From UHGV virus genome UHGV-0113213: DNA of 52,407 bases. One strand, written 5' to 3'. The stretch is from a virus. Of this stretch, positions 19,146 to 50,973 are shown in pieces. The notes under the pieces were generated by a model. The model was not told where the DNA came from. It searched no databases and worked only from the letters and a program-made list of their open reading frames with translations. Position 1 is the first letter of the stretch. The number at the start of each line of letters is the position of its first letter. Position numbers and translations under genes: made by a program.

Positions 19146-20077
19146 TCTTCGCCATATTTAGCGTGCGCAACTTTATAGTTTTCTTGCGCCCGATCTAATA
19201 TTCGTTCGTTTAATATGTTACCGTCTTCGTCAACTAATACGGTAATCGTGCTACATTTGCAGTTAATTGAATTAGGGGATCTACTCCACCATTCGCGCTG
19301 CTCATCTATGGTGTATGTTTTACCGTGCCGCTGCGCGTGCGATAGCCTGGTAGTCGGTGATAATGCCGAAATGTGCATTTGCATAGTGCGCAGATTAAAT
19401 TCTTCTGTCGCCGCTTCTGCCTCATCCATACGCGCTGTGCGTAACGCTGTGCATATTTCAGTTCGAGCAATACGTTTACACCTGTATAGCGGTAATTGCG
19501 TCTCCTGATTCAATGTGCGCGCTATTTCCAGTGGGTTTAAACCACGGGCCATGCCTTCAGTTAATCGCCGGGCCATATCCTTTTTGATCTGTGCGGTCAG
19601 CCCGCGCATTTCCTCAAATACACGGGTACGGACCAGAGCAAGGCGTGTTCGGTAAGTTGTACTGGATAACACGGCAGATACATCGGGATAAACGCTTGAG
19701 TACGTGACAGACTGGTTAGCAAGGTTGGCGTATTCCTGTGCCGTGCCTCGCAGATACGCGACCTTCACGTATTCCTGCCAGAACCAAAAACTTTCCGGGT
19801 CGGTTAGCTCGAATATCTCATCAATCATGTCGCTGGCGTCCTCCAGCATGTCGTGCAATTCATCCATGTAAATCTGGAAGGTATATTTCTTATTAACAGC
19901 CAGGCTATATTGTATTTTGTCCAGTATGGCGATATATGGATCGGCTACTTTTTTCAGGCAGGATTTGAAACGCTTAATAGCGCCAGACCTCAACCTCCCT
20001 GTCATGGTCGGGTCTTCGGTGTTAGATGGCATTATCGCGGCTGGAGGTATTCGCCTGATTATTTTCTTCACCTTCAT
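19136..20077 (-). CDS. head morphogenesis protein (SPP1 gp7 / Mu F-like)
   Basis: Lies downstream of the portal gene. Confidence 0.5.
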   Translation of the reverse strand: MKVKKIIRRIPPAAIMPSNTEDPTMTGRLRSGAIKRFKSCLKKVADPYIAILDKIQYSLAVNKKYTFQIYMDELHDMLEDASDMIDEIFELTDPESFWFWQEYVKVAYLRGTAQEYANLANQSVTYSSVYPDVSAVLSSTTYRTRLALVRTRVFEEMRGLTAQIKKDMARRLTEGMARGLNPLEIARTLNQETQLPLYRCKRIARTEICTALRTARMDEAEAATEEFNLRTMQMHISALSPTTRLSHAQRHGKTYTIDEQREWWSRSPNSINCKCSTITVLVDEDGNILNERILDRAQENYKVAHAKYGEDWE

Positions 20078-21416
20078 TGTCGTTTTCCTCGTCGTCCAGT
20101 TCTACTTCCTGCGTTGGCCCTTCATACCCGGCAGCCTCGCGGATCTCGTCACCGTCGAATACTTGTTCACCTGTGGCGAGACATGCCTGATTGATTTGCG
20201 CCATTTTGTATGCCGCGTCGAGTAGCTCGGCTTTCGTCATGGCGTTAAGGTCGTCCCACAGTACCGACACGTCGACTGGCATACTGATAAGGCGGAGATC
20301 TGCCATCTTGCGGAATAGTTCCTCAAGCTCGCCTCCTATTTCCTCCCGGCGGGTCATACAGCGGTTATTGAAGTAGCGGAGGTCTTCGGTTGATGCACGC
20401 TCACCCTGCTGATTCCCAACCAGGATACGCGTTGGAATGTCGATACCAGCGGCGGCGGTTTGCAGGTTGACGTCATAGGTAGCTGATGGATCCGCCACGG
20501 CAGTAACCAGCGGGCTAACGGTAGCTCCCTGTAATGCCATCATCACATCATTCCCTTTGTTTATATCCTCTGCCGCTTCATTGAATTTTTCGCGCAGCTC
20601 TGTAACGTCGCAACCGTATGTCGCAGCCAGGGAACGGAAATCAATCTCTTTGTCGAATGAGATAGCTAGTTGACGCGCTGCGTTTTTCAGAAAGGATTCA
20701 CCGCTACCGCCTTCCACTTTCTCCAGCGATACAAAAGCGTTATAGGACGGCTCAAGGAAAGCGATGGCATCATCAGAATAATCACCGAAGATAAATATGC
20801 GATCTGGATGTATCTTTCTTGCTATGGTCTTACTGTTAATGCGCTCCTTGTATTCCCACCATGTCGGCAGGCCATAGCTTTCACTTTCCGGATCTTCTTC
20901 GAAGTCCTTCGGTGTAAGAGCACCAGCCCATACAGGGGTAAATTTGGCAATGCCTACACCTTTCGTCACTGGCTGATCCCACGGCTGGTTATCCCTGACG
21001 TGAATTAACAGGCCAGCATAACGACCAATGAGGCGGCGGCGATCGCATTCAGCTATGACGCGCCAGAAACGATTATCAAATCGTTTTTTGATTTCTCTTT
21101 CCCACGGCGTTTCCTTTTTTGCTTTCTCGTCTTCCGTACCTTCGATCAGCGTTGGCCTGGTGCGCCAGCACGTAGTGATGATCTTCTCAATAGCACCGTG
21201 AGCGATACCACCGCGACGATACAGTTTGTATAAATCGGCATAGGTGATTTCTTCTTTGAATCCGTATTCACTCCACGCAGCATCACGCTTTGCATCAATA
21301 CCCATTGAGAAAGGATGCGCGGCGGCATAGCGTGCAAAGGCCGCCTGACGTTGTGACAAGGCAGCATTAACCGCCAATTCTAAATTGGATGGCATAATGT
21401 TTACTCCTGAATGCAT
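20022..21416 (-). CDS. portal protein
   Basis: 464 aa; lies downstream of TerL. Confidence 0.55.
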   Translation of the reverse strand: MHSGVNIMPSNLELAVNAALSQRQAAFARYAAAHPFSMGIDAKRDAAWSEYGFKEEITYADLYKLYRRGGIAHGAIEKIITTCWRTRPTLIEGTEDEKAKKETPWEREIKKRFDNRFWRVIAECDRRRLIGRYAGLLIHVRDNQPWDQPVTKGVGIAKFTPVWAGALTPKDFEEDPESESYGLPTWWEYKERINSKTIARKIHPDRIFIFGDYSDDAIAFLEPSYNAFVSLEKVEGGSGESFLKNAARQLAISFDKEIDFRSLAATYGCDVTELREKFNEAAEDINKGNDVMMALQGATVSPLVTAVADPSATYDVNLQTAAAGIDIPTRILVGNQQGERASTEDLRYFNNRCMTRREEIGGELEELFRKMADLRLISMPVDVSVLWDDLNAMTKAELLDAAYKMAQINQACLATGEQVFDGDEIREAAGYEGPTQEVELDDEENDNEGEENNQANTSSRDNAI

Positions 21417-34879: not shown

Positions 34880-34959
34880 TATACAAAATGGATACCCCCA
34901 AACAAGGCAAAAAGCGCCATTATGTGATCCGCATCACGCAATGATGCCATTTTGTAAAC
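34880..34959. promoter_or_regulatory. promoter region: TATACAAAATGGA ... CRP-like TGTGATCCGCATCAC ... CCATTTTGTAAAC
   Basis: Inverted motif pair flanks the palindrome. The minus-strand reading gives -10 TATACT. Confidence 0.45.
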
Positions 34960-34960
34960 T

Positions 34961-35725
34961 TTAGTCCGGTAAAATGCGGTTAAGCGTAGTACGAGTGATG
35001 GCCCGGTCGTTAGCCAGGAATACAGCACGGGCAAAGCCGCGCGGCGTTAGTGAGCGGATCATCTTAGTGCGTTTCGACTCTCCTCCTAACTTCGCGTGCT
35101 GTTTGCTGTCTTCCCATTCATCCGGCATAGGTACAGGCCGGAATAGCGGCTGCTTAAATCCATTCCCGCACCAGATACAAGTTTTCTTCGTGTATGCGTC
35201 GCGGGCAGCTATGTATTCAGGGAAAGCAGGGTGTTTGTCGTCTTCAGGCAGGTAGCCACCGTAAGCGCACGGGTTGAAGATAAAATCAGGTTTGCGCCAT
35301 AACGTTGACAGCGCACCTACCGGATTTTCCACCATCCACGGGACGTGGTACATATCAGCAAGCGTTTCTACCAGTTTTGCGTTGTATACCGCCTTCTGCT
35401 GGAAGTAAGGTTCTTTTTTCCGCTTATCAGCAAACCAGCGAGCGCCGGACACCGCAAGATCGTCGCACGGAGGAAAGCCCAGGATAATGTCAGGATCTGG
35501 ATAAACAGACAATTCAGGGGAGAACATTACCAGGAAATGGCTGTCAATCCATACGTTGATATACTCAATGTTCGGATGAATGATTTTGACGCCTTCATAA
35601 TCGCCGTGATTAGCGCCATCATAGTTGAAGCAATAGCATTTATAACCAGCGTCGGCCCAATCTTTAACGGCGTATCCGCTGCCGTCGTACAGCGACCACA
35701 CCACCCAATTTCTAAGCCCACTCAT
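34961..35725 (-). CDS. C5-cytosine DNA methyltransferase-like protein (short, no obvious TRD)
   Basis: GFPPC (motif IV PC), ENPVGA (motif VI ENV-like), LYDGSGY (motif I-like). Confidence 0.4.
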   Translation of the reverse strand: MSGLRNWVVWSLYDGSGYAVKDWADAGYKCYCFNYDGANHGDYEGVKIIHPNIEYINVWIDSHFLVMFSPELSVYPDPDIILGFPPCDDLAVSGARWFADKRKKEPYFQQKAVYNAKLVETLADMYHVPWMVENPVGALSTLWRKPDFIFNPCAYGGYLPEDDKHPAFPEYIAARDAYTKKTCIWCGNGFKQPLFRPVPMPDEWEDSKQHAKLGGESKRTKMIRSLTPRGFARAVFLANDRAITRTTLNRILPD

Positions 35726-36225
35726 TTCCTACCCTCGAACGTAAAGTAGCGGCGCATGATGATAGTGATCACCGTTACCGCCGCCATTTTTGAGATGAAT
35801 TGCATAGCTGATATTTCCGGCATGAATGCCATAAACGATAGCGTTGGGAAAATTAACGCATCGCCAATGGCGGACGCTATATTTGCAGGCCAGCGTTTAG
35901 AATCGAAATCACCAGGTAAAACCCGGTAAACGCCGCCAGAAATAAGCGCACCGGAAACAACCGCGACGAATGACGCGATCGCCACCATTCCGGCGTCGTA
36001 ATTTATCAGCACCGTGATTGCGCCAGCGGCGGCGCATGTTGTAGCCGACCATTTAAGGCCGCCGTCATATAACAGAAAATCACGAATCATCATATTGACA
36101 CACACGGCGGCTACCGTGGTGATCGGAATTACCCACGGGCCACAGTGGTTAACAATAAGATTGATGATAACGAAAACGGCGACATAAACGCAGGCTAATA
36201 ACCTGTCAATTGCCACCATCTTCAT
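35722..36225 (-). CDS. YhhQ/DUF165 (queuosine-precursor transporter family)-like membrane protein
   Basis: SKRWPANIASAIGDALIFPTLSFMAF aligns with YhhQ SRRWWLAPTASTLFGNVSDTLAFFFIAF; polytopic. Confidence 0.5.
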   Translation of the reverse strand: MKMVAIDRLLACVYVAVFVIINLIVNHCGPWVIPITTVAAVCVNMMIRDFLLYDGGLKWSATTCAAAGAITVLINYDAGMVAIASFVAVVSGALISGGVYRVLPGDFDSKRWPANIASAIGDALIFPTLSFMAFMPEISAMQFISKMAAVTVITIIMRRYFTFEGRK

Positions 36226-36400
36226 TTAGCTCTTCCTCCCGATACGCTAATATCTGTTCGGCCTTAAGCGCGTTATAAGCAATAAGGTCTATAAGAGTGT
36301 CGAGCGGATCAGTTCCATTAGCGAGAATAGCCCCTAAACGCGCTTCCTTGAGGCAAATCATTAGATCCCATACATCAAGTGGGGTTAAATTCGCATTCAT
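36206..36400 (-). CDS. hypothetical protein
   Basis: ORF. Confidence 0.35.
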   Translation of the reverse strand: MNANLTPLDVWDLMICLKEARLGAILANGTDPLDTLIDLIAYNALKAEQILAYREEELNEDGGN

Positions 36401-36517
36401 CTTAGCGTTGAAAATAGCCGCTATTTTTGGCGCTGATTTTTCTTCTTTTCGATCGTATCCGTTTTGCTCCCTCTTGCCTCGATAGTTTCAGCCGCAAGTC
36501 TCAGCAATTCAGCCGCT

Positions 36518-37057
36518 TTATTCATTTTCTGCACCTCTTGCATATAGCTCTTTACGTGTTATCTGCGTGAAAATACATTCATGTCTGCATCGTGGATGCC
36601 AGATCAGGAACAAGCTCCCCTTATTGTTCCCGCTTACTGGTTTCCCTGTTGCAGCATTGATAAACGCCAGCCGCCCGCGCGTGATTAATCGGCATTCGTT
36701 TGCCGTCTCCACGCCGTTCATAAACCAGCTAACAGAAATGTCAGCGGGCAATAACATTACGCATCCGATATGATTTCGGCTGTGTTCAAGCGCCGCTTTA
36801 TCAACGAATGGCCCCGGATTAGAATATGGCGGATTCATCCAGACATACTCACCAGGCATCGCCACCGCTCCCCACGGATAATGGAGCGTGTCCATTTCTT
36901 CGGTTATATATCGCGGTATTAATGCGTTTGCCTTGTTTGCCGCCACATCCGCGACGAACTCGAATTCTCGATCCATTCCTCTAAAAACGGGTTTTGGCGT
37001 TTGCCATAAGTCCTTTATTTCTTTCGGCGTATGGCTGCCGCCGTAATCATTTTTCAT
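36518..37057 (-). CDS. phage N6-adenine DNA methyltransferase (Dam_N6A-like)
   Basis: NPPYS motif IV; size matches phage Dam-like methyltransferases. Confidence 0.7.
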   Translation of the reverse strand: MKNDYGGSHTPKEIKDLWQTPKPVFRGMDREFEFVADVAANKANALIPRYITEEMDTLHYPWGAVAMPGEYVWMNPPYSNPGPFVDKAALEHSRNHIGCVMLLPADISVSWFMNGVETANECRLITRGRLAFINAATGKPVSGNNKGSLFLIWHPRCRHECIFTQITRKELYARGAENE

Positions 37058-37066
37058 TACGCCCCC

Positions 37067-37555
37067 TTAGAAATAATCCTGATCTGTTCCCCAGCGGTTA
37101 TTCAGATACCCCACCAACCACACAAAACGCTCAATACTGATTAGCGGGGCGACCTTGCGATAATGCTTATCTAATATCAGCCGCGTGGCTTTATCGCTGT
37201 AGCCGTTCTTCTCTACCTCCGCTTTGCAGGCCGAAAGCGCGGCGCGGGCGGCAGTCTTTACGGCGTTAAATTGCGGCTCTGACATATTGAATAAGGCCAT
37301 AGGATCACCATGTGTCAGTCCAATCCGGCGCGGCAGTCCAGCAAAAACCAATGAATGCGCTAACAGCCAATAAAGCGCGGGCTGCAAAAAGAATATTCCC
37401 AATGTCGTTAAATTCAGGAAGCGACCACGTAATAAACATAGCCCCAGCATAATAACACCGATAACAGTCATGGCCGCCAGGAAAACAAAAAGCGTAGCCA
37501 AAAGCCACGCCCCCAACCAGTTAAAAAAGCTCTTAAGCATTTTAAACGTCCTCAA
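37067..37555 (-). CDS. membrane protein (3-4 TM)
   Basis: Hydrophobic N-terminal half. Confidence 0.4.
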   Translation of the reverse strand: MRTFKMLKSFFNWLGAWLLATLFVFLAAMTVIGVIMLGLCLLRGRFLNLTTLGIFFLQPALYWLLAHSLVFAGLPRRIGLTHGDPMALFNMSEPQFNAVKTAARAALSACKAEVEKNGYSDKATRLILDKHYRKVAPLISIERFVWLVGYLNNRWGTDQDYF

Positions 37556-49297: not shown

Positions 49298-49500
49298 GAC
49301 GGGTAATCTTTTATTCAGTTGAAACGTTTATCGACGATACGCGCGTTTATTATCCGTGGGAAGTATACGACGCAAAGGTGTATACACCGCCACTGATGCG
49401 GAAATATAAACACGTAAAATTTAACCGGGTTTTTGTGCCAATGCACGATGCATTGCGGGCGCTGCGTGGGGAATTGCGAAACACAATGCGGATTGTGTAA
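49294..49500 (+). CDS. hypothetical protein
   Basis: ORF. Confidence 0.35.
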   Translation: MRRVIFYSVETFIDDTRVYYPWEVYDAKVYTPPLMRKYKHVKFNRVFVPMHDALRALRGELRNTMRIV

Positions 49501-49508
49501 GGGGAGTT

Positions 49509-49706
49509 ATGGACAAGGAACTGGATTTAACTGTTGAAGACCTGAGCACGATTGCGGAATACATGCGCGGCGATGATCCTGATCGCCCTGTTGTCGTTGA
49601 TATGAAAAAACTTAAAAACGATTTTATGGCTAGTTCAAGGCTCATTTCTTTATGGGCGATCATGTATGCGCGTGCACCGCGTGAAAATAGTAACGGTGTA
49701 TCATGA
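49509..49706 (+). CDS. hypothetical protein
   Basis: ORF. Confidence 0.35.
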   Translation: MDKELDLTVEDLSTIAEYMRGDDPDRPVVVDMKKLKNDFMASSRLISLWAIMYARAPRENSNGVS

Positions 49707-50325: not shown

Positions 50326-50973
50326 ATGAATAAACTTAAAGCAATTGGCGTAATTCGCCATCGTGTAGACCCGGACTACCCTTCTTTTGAGGTTGCCACA
50401 TACCGCAACGAATACCAATATGGATCATCTTTCCTTGTGGGTGTTCGCGCTGATACTGGCGGCACTTATTCAGTTATGGCGGCTTCATGTGTTTTTGAAG
50501 AATATAAAAATATAGATGATGACGGCATGAATAAAGAAAGTGAAATCATTGATGAATTAATCGAAGATGAGCGGCATGATTGCGATAAACCGGAAGTTAC
50601 AGAATGGAAGGCAGGAGAAAAGCCGCCGTGCGGAGTGTGGCTTGATTGCATTGGATCAAGAAGCGATATAGTGATTGATGTCGTTAAGTTTTTCTACCTG
50701 GGCGATAAGTGGTCTATTGCTCACAGTAAATTAGATACAGGTATTGAAACACCAATTGCATGGAAACAATACTCGTACCGCATTCACATTGACCCGAAAG
50801 AAAAAGCACTGGCGGAAATTGCGTTTGCGCTGGCTACTAAGGTGATTGGTGAAGATGCGGCAAAAGAAATTAATTTTAACCGCGACAACGAATTTTCATG
50901 CGATTATCGCAACATGGCGCAAGCTATTATCGACGGATGTATCGGACACGTTGAATACACGGGAGGTAAATAA
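50326..50973 (+). CDS. hypothetical protein
   Basis: ORF. Confidence 0.4.
   Translation: MNKLKAIGVIRHRVDPDYPSFEVATYRNEYQYGSSFLVGVRADTGGTYSVMAASCVFEEYKNIDDDGMNKESEIIDELIEDERHDCDKPEVTEWKAGEKPPCGVWLDCIGSRSDIVIDVVKFFYLGDKWSIAHSKLDTGIETPIAWKQYSYRIHIDPKEKALAEIAFALATKVIGEDAAKEINFNRDNEFSCDYRNMAQAIIDGCIGHVEYTGGK

Follow-up and report, generated by a model that had tools for sequence, protein, structure and literature searches.

The stretch of DNA analyzed here (the window, 52,407 nt) is an E. coli prophage of the mEp021 type (mEpimmI), and the minus-strand early cluster within it comprises four closely spaced genes, encoding Dam, a DUF6378 protein, a membrane protein, and a C5-methyltransferase-like protein (Table 1). 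The phage is a temperate coliphage of the mEp021 type, and in its delayed-early operon these genes probably form a mosaic of accessory functions, each of an individually known kind and most likely acting independently of the others. In this otherwise known gene set, the occurrence of the transporter without DpdA is a modest peculiarity.

Table 1. Genes of the early cluster and the adjoining hairpin, in window coordinates
Feature	Position	Strand	Basis of assignment
Hairpin just 3' of the Dcm-like gene	34914..34947	-	Position equals that of mEp021 terminator t4
Putative compact Dcm-like C5-cytosine DNA methyltransferase, 254 aa	34961..35725	-	phrog_757; DNMT3-like predicted fold; catalytic residues
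Compact VUT/YhhQ-family membrane protein, 167 aa, six predicted helices	35722..36225	-	phrog_4899
DUF6378 gene, frameshifted	36206..36526	-	PF19905; phrog_474 and phrog_9871 on the intact FAH copy
Dam, predicted orphan N6-adenine DNA methyltransferase, 179 aa	36518..37057	-	PF05869, TIGR01712, phrog_111, PADLOC

At the DNA level the window shares 99.8% identity with an E. coli FAH prophage, and its identity to mEp021, MagusPhagus, and mEp010/013/044/554/515 is 84-91%; the mEpimmI group has been described previously (PMC11893012). The Dam-DUF6378-VUT-Dcm cluster is kept throughout the mEp021-type group, and the longer gene order Dam-DUF6378-VUT-Dcm-NinG-RusA-Q is retained in a distant relative, L088 (53-64% protein identity). 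Over the Dam, transporter, and Dcm-like genes, dN/dS ratios are 0.02-0.12. In mEp021 itself, the same cluster appears in the same order as gp30-gp33 (MH706966; 84-91% DNA identity), for which the GenBank labels are Dam, hypothetical protein, membrane protein, and cytosine methyltransferase, with the VUT identity absent; mEp021 differs from the window in its longer DUF6378 gene (165 aa) and in an additional N4/N6 methylase adjoining NinB. An earlier note on this DNA had described three adjacent early genes. All three open reading frames lie on the minus strand where that note had placed them, but the genes number four, the DUF6378 gene having been missed, and the three families proposed (C5-methyltransferase-like, YhhQ-like, and Dam) are all borne out, by matches to phrog_757, to a Vut_1/YhhQ profile, and to PF05869/TIGR01712, respectively.

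The assignment of Dam is the most straightforward. The protein scores 174.5 bits with PF05869 (E 1.9e-51; cut-off 28.1), the Dam_N6A comparison that the earlier note had proposed, and 140.9 bits with the TIGR01712 equivalog (cut-off 97.05), in both cases over its full length and far over the cut-off. Its translation contains the (D/N)PPY motif as MNPPYS, PADLOC classes it as an orphan methyltransferase (E 1.9e-24), and dN/dS relative to mEp021 and MagusPhagus is 0.05-0.09; a sequence search against the PDB gave no meaningful match. Judged by these family models, from whose members it shows no notable difference, the window's Dam is an ordinary member of the phage N6-adenine methylases and would methylate adenine, with GATC as its likely target as in characterized family members.

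The gene following Dam is interrupted in the window: an apparent loss of one base from a run of G near 36468 leaves two open reading frames (36421-36543 and 36206-36400) in place of the 106-aa product of the intact FAH copy; the 64-aa remnant still matches PF19905 (E 2e-4). A second apparent 1-bp deletion occurs at about 37441. The placing of a DUF6378 gene between Dam and the transporter recurs in mEp021, MagusPhagus, and the distant L088 locus. In mEp021 and MagusPhagus the DUF6378 gene is longer, and a check of this longer version for a DpdA remnant found none. A sequence search of DUF6378 against the PDB gave no meaningful match, we found nothing in the literature on DUF6378 function, and NCBIfam holds no model for the DUF6378, Dcm-like, or transporter proteins.

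The C5-methyltransferase-like protein had been regarded as a short protein of open function with no obvious target-recognition domain. It belongs instead to a widespread and experimentally supported Dcm family, and the puzzle is mostly gone: the protein matches phrog_757 'DNA methyltransferase' with E 3.6e-87, a family of 1,515 phage records that mostly occur without the transporter, and is 60% identical over 232 residues (E 2e-101) to the Dcm-like bas06_0055 of phage KarlJaspers, whose genome is 95.4% identical to that of K42. The equivalent 711-bp gene of K42 makes 5mC at CCWGG by LC-MS, and its catalytic set is C82/E128/K175/K176, among which C82 and E128 have been mutated (bioRxiv 10.1101/2023.08.16.553469). 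The counterparts of these residues in the window's protein are C87, E133, K180, and K181, conserved with equivalent spacing. Its motifs include ILGFPPCDDLAVSG and MVENPVGAL; C87 of motif IV (FPPC) and E133 of motif VI (ENP) are both invariant among 36 relatives. Motif I, the SAM-binding F-x-G-x-G loop, is represented by SLYDGSGYA at residues 11-19, where G15 and S16 are invariant among the 36 relatives and G17 nearly so, and it aligns with motif I of DNMT3B. At the canonical position of motif II the family carries an unusual invariant N-x5-HG-x-Y segment.

The Pfam model that the earlier note had suggested for this protein, PF00145, gives no match to it at E<=1, and so none at the gathering threshold, but matches 16 of the 36 relatives weakly (best E 1.3e-6). 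Direct sequence searches of the PDB with the 254-aa and 167-aa proteins likewise returned no meaningful match. The AF2 model of the 254-aa protein (pLDDT 88.5, pTM 0.88) has a class I methyltransferase fold, and all 50 of the 50 PDB matches listed by Foldseek are DNMT3A/3B/3C catalytic domains (E 6e-7 to 4e-5, TM about 0.5), with DNMT3A/3B the best (E 6e-7). On the evidence of this modeled fold, and not of the Pfam model, the protein is a divergent branch of the C5 enzymes. By analogy with its KarlJaspers and K42 relatives, it most likely forms 5-methylcytosine, which it would place on replicating phage DNA, with CCWGG as the probable target given the 60%-identical relative.

The gp55 Dcm of K42/KarlJaspers (Bas06), which is the trigger of retron Ec86, shares with the window's protein its phrog_757 membership, compact size, and DNMT3-like fold. 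The window's protein differs in a few-residue N-terminal extension and a 15-residue C-terminal tail, and the phages differ as well, the window being a temperate mEp021-type siphovirus whereas K42 and KarlJaspers are virulent Drexlerviridae. Since the phrog_757 Dcm family triggers retron Ec86, the prophage probably carries a putative retron trigger.

Among the genes neighboring the methylases (DUF6378, the transporter, NinF/NinG/RusA, and small open reading frames) there is no cognate restriction endonuclease such as would mark a restriction-modification system. Both candidate target sites are abundant in the window, with 125 CCWGG sites observed against 57 expected and 237 GATC sites against 177, and the anti-restriction role suggested in the earlier note is plausible for the two methyltransferases: as orphan methylases, Dam and the Dcm-like enzyme would dampen restriction by the host. 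The description of mEp021 gives an NdeI restriction pattern, DNA modification being outside its tests (PMC11893012).

The membrane protein required a deeper comparison. It matches phrog_4899, a family of 21 phage records, with E 2.7e-46, whereas the sequence alone scores only 12.3 bits (E 0.22) against Pfam Vut_1 (PF02592), under the cut-off of 27.2. In an alignment of 70 sequences, consisting of the 167-aa protein and the homologues gathered by exhaustive HMMER search, 69 match Vut_1 (best E 2.5e-15), which confirms the DUF165/VUT family that had been proposed even though the single sequence is sub-threshold, and the homologue profile aligns with E. coli YhhQ by hhalign (94.4% probability, E 9e-8, 141 columns). 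A shallow profile built from close relatives alone (alignment A2) left YhhQ undetected. Through alignment and profile, then, the protein is a true compact homologue of the YhhQ/VUT family (PF02592, COG1738). Homology to the E. coli preQ0/preQ1 transporter YhhQ extends over the whole protein, with shared motifs N (helix 1), xDLxxR (helix 2), IAxAS, and SN...D(S/T)xxF...AF...K and six helices in each; at 167 aa against 221 aa, the window's protein lacks the loops and C-terminal tail of YhhQ. A polytopic arrangement is likewise predicted by the AF2 model, with six long helices (pLDDT 70.5), and GenBank records six transmembrane domains on the mEp021 orthologue. RibU, an ECF-transporter S component, is the model's top PDB match, at a non-significant level (probability 0.91, E 0.58).

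Elsewhere, this small phage YhhQ-like family is a near-constant neighbor of DpdA: phrog_4899 transporters directly adjoin it in 74 of 80 IMG/VR metagenomic loci and in 9 of 9 cultured phages. Such VUT-DpdA cassettes are found in Pectobacterium phage PEAT2 (gp18-gp19), Escherichia phages LHE71, Lg3, and Phleasolo, and Acinetobacter phage AB3P2, and resemble the window in having a phrog_4899 transporter (28-37% identity to the window's), an early-gene position, and a start/stop codon overlap with the adjoining DNA-modifying gene; the neighbor differs, being DpdA (phrog_887) in the cassettes and the Dcm-like methylase in the window. The Drexlerviridae proteins encoded downstream of the transporter were compared with the Dcm-like protein and do not resemble it; they are DpdA. 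PEAT2 was reportedly entered in a 2019 survey with DpdA only.

The absence of DpdA, QueC/D/E, and FolE noted earlier holds here. Searches for DpdA came back empty: for the window, tblastn and an hmmsearch against its translations in all six frames; for mEp021, a DpdA HMM and tblastn over the first 50 kb of its 54.7-kb genome; and, for the larger window open reading frames without assignment, PHROG scans. The larger frames scanned match replication, nuclease, or structural families or PHROGs of unassigned function, apart from 50326-50973, which matches none. Neither the PGAP annotation of the 99.8%-identical FAH prophage region nor the GenBank annotation of mEp021 lists DpdA, Que, or FolE genes, and a search for tRNA genes with GUN anticodons, a possible queuosine link, found none.

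We consider it most plausible that the 167-aa protein acts as a YhhQ/VUT permease in miniature. Its family membership, the DpdA linkage of its relatives, and one homologue that is fused to QueF suggest transport of preQ0, preQ1, or queuine, so that it would carry a 7-deazaguanine-type (preQ0/preQ1-like) base across the inner membrane. Because the phage has no DpdA, the imported base could not enter phage DNA via a phage enzyme; its most likely use would be to supply the host queuosine-tRNA pathway during infection, with a shifted substrate specificity as the alternative. E. coli already encodes YhhQ and a complete preQ0 pathway, which makes the benefit of a second importer less than obvious. 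The mEp021 group, available as a cultured system in K-12, keeps the transporter without DpdA, and a DpdA-independent role for deazapurine transport by phages thereby becomes testable.

Several other readings must be weighed against an accessory-gene mosaic. The transporters of the mEp021 group, L088, and the P0133 clade may represent a sub-clade of small phage YhhQ-like transporters that has been uncoupled from DpdA and selected for another job, a proposal that we regard as unlikely; if it were true, that job might be base import reprogramming host tRNA queuosine levels during infection, or the supply of a host or unrecognized DNA-modifying enzyme. The phages concerned are all apparently temperate.

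A further, rather improbable reading is that the membrane protein does not transport at all, being either left over from a decaying VUT-DpdA cassette or recruited to a membrane function, for instance superinfection exclusion. Small prophage membrane proteins frequently function in exclusion, DpdA is absent, and deletion chimeras in public data (P0007 and P0010) demonstrate that the transporter can be lost. Moreover, three usually conserved polar positions are altered in the window's protein (N44 for D, S96 for D, and A123 for S), changes that may also mean that the transporter's substrate differs. N44 fails as a mark of DpdA-less transporters, as N occurs in 11 of the 70 homologues. Against a non-transporting protein, dN/dS of the gene is 0.02-0.05, indicating strong purifying selection and excluding neutral decay; most family-invariant residues are kept (N22, G29, R48, D49, A82, A84, S85, N115, D122, F126, P127, F131, and K146); and the gene's place is the lytic early operon, not that of a lysogenic moron.

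The same purifying selection in a genome without DpdA, the near-constant DpdA linkage of the family, and co-expression with DNA-modifying enzymes in an early operon would also fit a transporter that serves 7-deazaguanine modification of phage DNA through a non-adjacent transglycosylase, either a Dpd-type enzyme present in some hosts or an unrecognized phage protein. Typical E. coli are not known to carry a dpd cluster, which speaks against the host version, while the phage version is opposed by the HMM, tblastn, and PHROG results above and by the families matched by the larger open reading frames, leaving only 50326-50973 without a match; we judge this reading to have a slim chance of being correct.

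Scarcely credible, finally, is a functional pair in which the transporter would import a cofactor or precursor from which the Dcm-like enzyme would form a new cytosine modification. In its favor, the pair is retained in the distant L088, the ATG of the Dcm-like gene overlaps the transporter's stop codon over 4 nt (ATGA), and the N-x5-HG-x-Y segment replaces motif II. Against it, phage records number 1,515 for the Dcm family and 21 for the transporter, plain 5mC is made by a 60%-identical member that works with no transporter, no Dcm adjoins the next transporter clade (P0133), and DpdA-linked transporters mostly have none nearby. We see no sign of the novel DNA hypermodification that the earlier note had entertained: Dcm genes mostly occur apart from the transporter, and the transporter occurs in the company of DpdA but not of Dcm, which makes mosaic packing of accessory genes the best reading of their adjacency here. 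The ATGA overlap, which would imply tight translational coupling, is in itself compatible with a functional link.

We note in passing that the hairpin downstream of the cluster contains the inverted repeat GCATCA-n5-TGATGC at 34931-34947. The mEp021 annotation places TERM_4 14-47 nt past the homologous Dcm-like gene, and by analogy the window's hairpin may have a terminator-type function; nutR2 has also been placed downstream of the mEp021 Dcm-like gene (PMC11893012).

The 2.8 kb around the cluster are 99.8% identical to a prophage of E. coli strain FAH. They share 84-91% identity with mEp021, MagusPhagus, mEp010, mEp013, mEp044, mEp554 and mEp515, cultured temperate phages that have been described as the 'mEpimmI' group (PMC11893012). 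Gene order is identical in the FAH prophage (PGAP annotation) and mEp021 (GenBank annotation): a long early operon starts at a repressor-proximal promoter and runs from Erf, SSB and anti-RecBCD genes through small ORFs to Dam, a DUF6378 gene, a membrane protein and a cytosine-methylase-like gene, downstream of which lie a terminator and a second nut site, and then NinF, NinG, RusA and Q. This shared order, together with the second nut site, places the cluster within delayed-early, antitermination-dependent transcription, in agreement with an earlier note that had assigned it to the early genes.

Coordinates of the cluster genes and of compared features (window positions unless a locus is named)
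Feature	Position	Strand	Remark
Dam-type methylase	36518-37057	minus	179 aa
DUF6378 gene	36206-36526	minus	1 bp missing from a G run at ~36468
YhhQ/VUT-like membrane protein	35722-36225	minus	167 aa
Dcm-like protein	34961-35725	minus	254 aa
Joined upstream ORF	37067-37555		162 aa; 1-bp deletion near 37441
Extended DUF6378 genes, mEp021 and MagusPhagus	L001 5401-5898; L002 5407-5919
mEp021_05, putative N4/N6 methylase	L007 2836-3573
Split Dcm-like gene, LHE71	L006 2157-2890
Gene upstream of minor head protein	L003 5058-6428		roughly window 20022-21416

All three ORFs on which that note had rested are present where it placed them, on the minus strand and with the motifs read in them, but they do not form a cluster of three, as the DUF6378 gene lies between Dam and the transporter. 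The genes are closely packed: the DUF6378 gene overlaps its neighbors on both sides, and the ATG of the methylase-like gene sits on the stop codon of the membrane protein (ATGA). The DUF6378 gene had been overlooked because a 1-bp deletion relative to FAH breaks it in two; a second such deletion joins two small upstream ORFs, one for a small membrane protein and one homologous to mEp021 'ipe'. Since the window and FAH differ by only three substitutions over 2.8 kb, yet by two 1-bp deletions, the deletions are suggestive of sequencing errors in homopolymers or of damage (pseudogenization) that is very recent. In the mEp021 group the DUF6378 gene invariably separates Dam from the transporter; its product has a helical-looking core of ~100 aa and, in mEp021 and MagusPhagus, a variable C-terminal extension of ~65 aa that is missing from the window and from the distant relative L088. 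The PHROG name of its family, 'phosphofructokinase', looks like an annotation artefact. In some prophages the cluster is eroding, as seen in two deletion chimeras from public assemblies, one joining the N-terminal part of the transporter to the Dcm C-terminus (P0007) and the other the Dam domain PF05869 to the C-terminal half of the transporter (P0010).

By its sequence, Dam is an ordinary phage N6-adenine methylase, as had been proposed: its match to Pfam PF05869 (E 1.9e-51) spans the full length, and it scores well over the cut-off of the NCBIfam equivalog TIGR01712, and also matches the PADLOC orphan-methylase models. Characterized members of this family are specific for GATC, which is by analogy the probable target here. 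Over the whole window, GATC (237 sites versus 177 expected from dinucleotide-preserving shuffles) and CCWGG (125 versus 57) are both over-represented; neither is avoided.

The 254-aa protein by itself matches nothing in Pfam or NCBIfam, but it matches phrog_757 'DNA methyltransferase' (E 3.6e-87) and has relatives in more than 2,300 clusters at 90% identity. With tblastn, the family is found in 1,515 of 50,697 phage records, mainly Escherichia, Klebsiella and Salmonella phages, including Drexlerviridae and genomes of 136-168 kb. The C5-methyltransferase motifs noticed earlier are borne out by an alignment of 36 relatives, in which DGSG (motif I), PPC (motif IV) and ENP (motif VI) are invariant or nearly so, and WR, a KK pair and a C-terminal IRSLTPRG block are also conserved; 16 of these relatives match PF00145 weakly. 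A PDB profile search with the family returned DNMT3B alone, aligned across motifs I-IV, and the best PDB matches of the confident AlphaFold model (pLDDT 88.5) are all catalytic domains of DNMT3A, 3B or 3C, in which, as in this protein, the target-recognition region is very small. The function, which the earlier note had left open, is settled at the family level by a preprint on retron Ec86. Phage K42 shares 95.4% genome identity with KarlJaspers (Bas06), and its escape mutants all disrupted a 711-bp dcm gene; its product, modelled on DNMT3A with catalytic residues C82, E128, K175 and K176, places 5mC on msDNA at a CCWGG site, as measured by LC-MS (10.1101/2023.08.16.553469). The KarlJaspers gene bas06_0055, a 711-bp 'Dcm-like C5 cytosine methyltransferase', encodes a protein 60% identical to ours over 232 residues (E 2e-101), and the four catalytic residues map, with the same spacing, to C87, E133, K180 and K181. 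Because of this identity and these residues, the 254-aa protein is assigned to a compact Dcm family that is known and active, and CCWGG would be its probable target. We note in passing that in phage LHE71 the phrog_757 gene is seemingly split into two overlapping fragments, ~2.5 kb from a VUT-DpdA pair and on the opposite strand.

The alignment with YhhQ claimed for the membrane protein also stands. A word-indexed search picked up no more than about twelve close relatives. When a seven-sequence profile was run exhaustively with HMMER, 259 representatives came up at E<=0.001, mostly of 155-180 aa, and we aligned 69 of these with the window protein. Pfam Vut_1 is matched by 69 of the 70 sequences (best E 2.5e-15), while the window protein alone reaches E 0.22 over the whole model; the 70-sequence profile matches E. 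coli YhhQ with 94.4% probability (E 9e-8) across residues 8-152 of the window protein, and the AlphaFold model has six long helices. These matches identify it as a real, loop-trimmed YhhQ/VUT homologue (phrog_4899). It keeps most family-invariant residues; N44, S96 and A123 depart from the polar residues that are usually conserved at these positions. One of the 70 sequences (P0221) carries an N-terminal QueF-like domain fused to a small VUT homologue; separately, some twenty homologues of ~300 aa have added sequence without a consistent Pfam match.

Elsewhere, this small VUT family is a near-universal neighbor of DpdA. In all nine cultured-phage loci examined outside the mEp021 group (PEAT2, LHE71, Lg3, Phleasolo, Phc, RCIP0319, Tbat1_6, ECO111 5-P and AB3P2), phrog_887 'queuine tRNA-ribosyltransferase' (DpdA) directly adjoins the phrog_4899 gene, and among the IMG/VR loci retrieved with the family alignment DpdA is adjacent in 74 of 80, in most of these with an overlap between the two genes; of the six loci without it, four have the transporter no more than ~300 nt from where the contig stops. 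A 2019 survey of phage deazaguanine genes found phage YhhQ homologues uncorrelated with any group and listed PEAT2 with DpdA only, so the small family was evidently missed in part, and many 'DpdA-only' phages may carry an overlooked YhhQ-like partner.

The absence of DpdA and of preQ0 synthesis genes reported for the window extends beyond it. DpdA HMM and tblastn searches found no match in the window, in the FAH prophage region, in L088 or in mEp021 (54.7 kb, of which the first 50 kb were covered); PHROG scans of the larger unassigned window ORFs gave replication, nuclease, structural or unknown-function families and no DpdA; and no Que or FolE gene is annotated in the FAH region or mEp021. 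Despite the missing DpdA, the transporter is clearly kept under selection, as its dN/dS is 0.02-0.05 (39 synonymous and 3 non-synonymous changes against mEp021, 24 and 4 against MagusPhagus). A vestigial or non-transport role is unlikely; neutral decay is contradicted by this ratio. L088 retains the order Dam-DUF6378-VUT-Dcm-NinG-RusA-Q at protein identities of 53% (Dam), 53% (transporter) and 64% (Dcm). In the next-closest transporter clade (P0133, 43% identity), on contigs of apparently temperate phages (one with an integrase), there is no DpdA within 5 kb, and the transporter adjoins an N4/N6 methylase and two small unknown genes. In relatives at 31-33% identity, DpdA is once more the neighbor. 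We consider 7-deazaguanine DNA modification through a non-adjacent or host transglycosylase improbable.

Every component can be placed in a family already known, and part of the cluster carries annotation in mEp021. The earlier suggestion of a new hypermodification module finds no support. In phage records the Dcm family outnumbers the transporter about seventyfold, and it acts by itself; DpdA is the usual partner of the transporter family. The two families also occur independently in T1-like phages. That they form a functional pair making a new cytosine adduct is highly improbable, given their independent distributions and the plain 5mC yielded by the K42 enzyme. We think it likely that the cluster is a mosaic of known parts with no new hypermodification. 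In the simplest reading, the mEp021 lineage would have assembled a block of independent accessory genes, in which two orphan methylases would protect the abundant GATC and CCWGG sites, and a deazapurine-type permease would either have lost its DpdA partner or never had one. The 2019 survey authors suggested that host queuosine might be boosted by phages that have preQ0 genes but no DpdA; by analogy, the permease would most plausibly supply the queuosine pathway of the host or have shifted substrate; deazapurine import for host tRNA specifically is a tentative proposal. Why a DpdA-associated transporter is kept without DpdA is a modest question, and one that a cultured K-12 phage makes testable.

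The methylase complement differs between members of the mEp021 group, as mEp021 has a third, putative N4/N6 enzyme adjoining NinB that is absent from the FAH prophage and apparently from the window (compare ~49300-49700). Finally, names may conflict for the gene that lies upstream of the one for the minor head protein: PGAP has 'anti-CBASS protein Acb1 family protein', and the mEp021 gene at the matching position is annotated as a portal protein.
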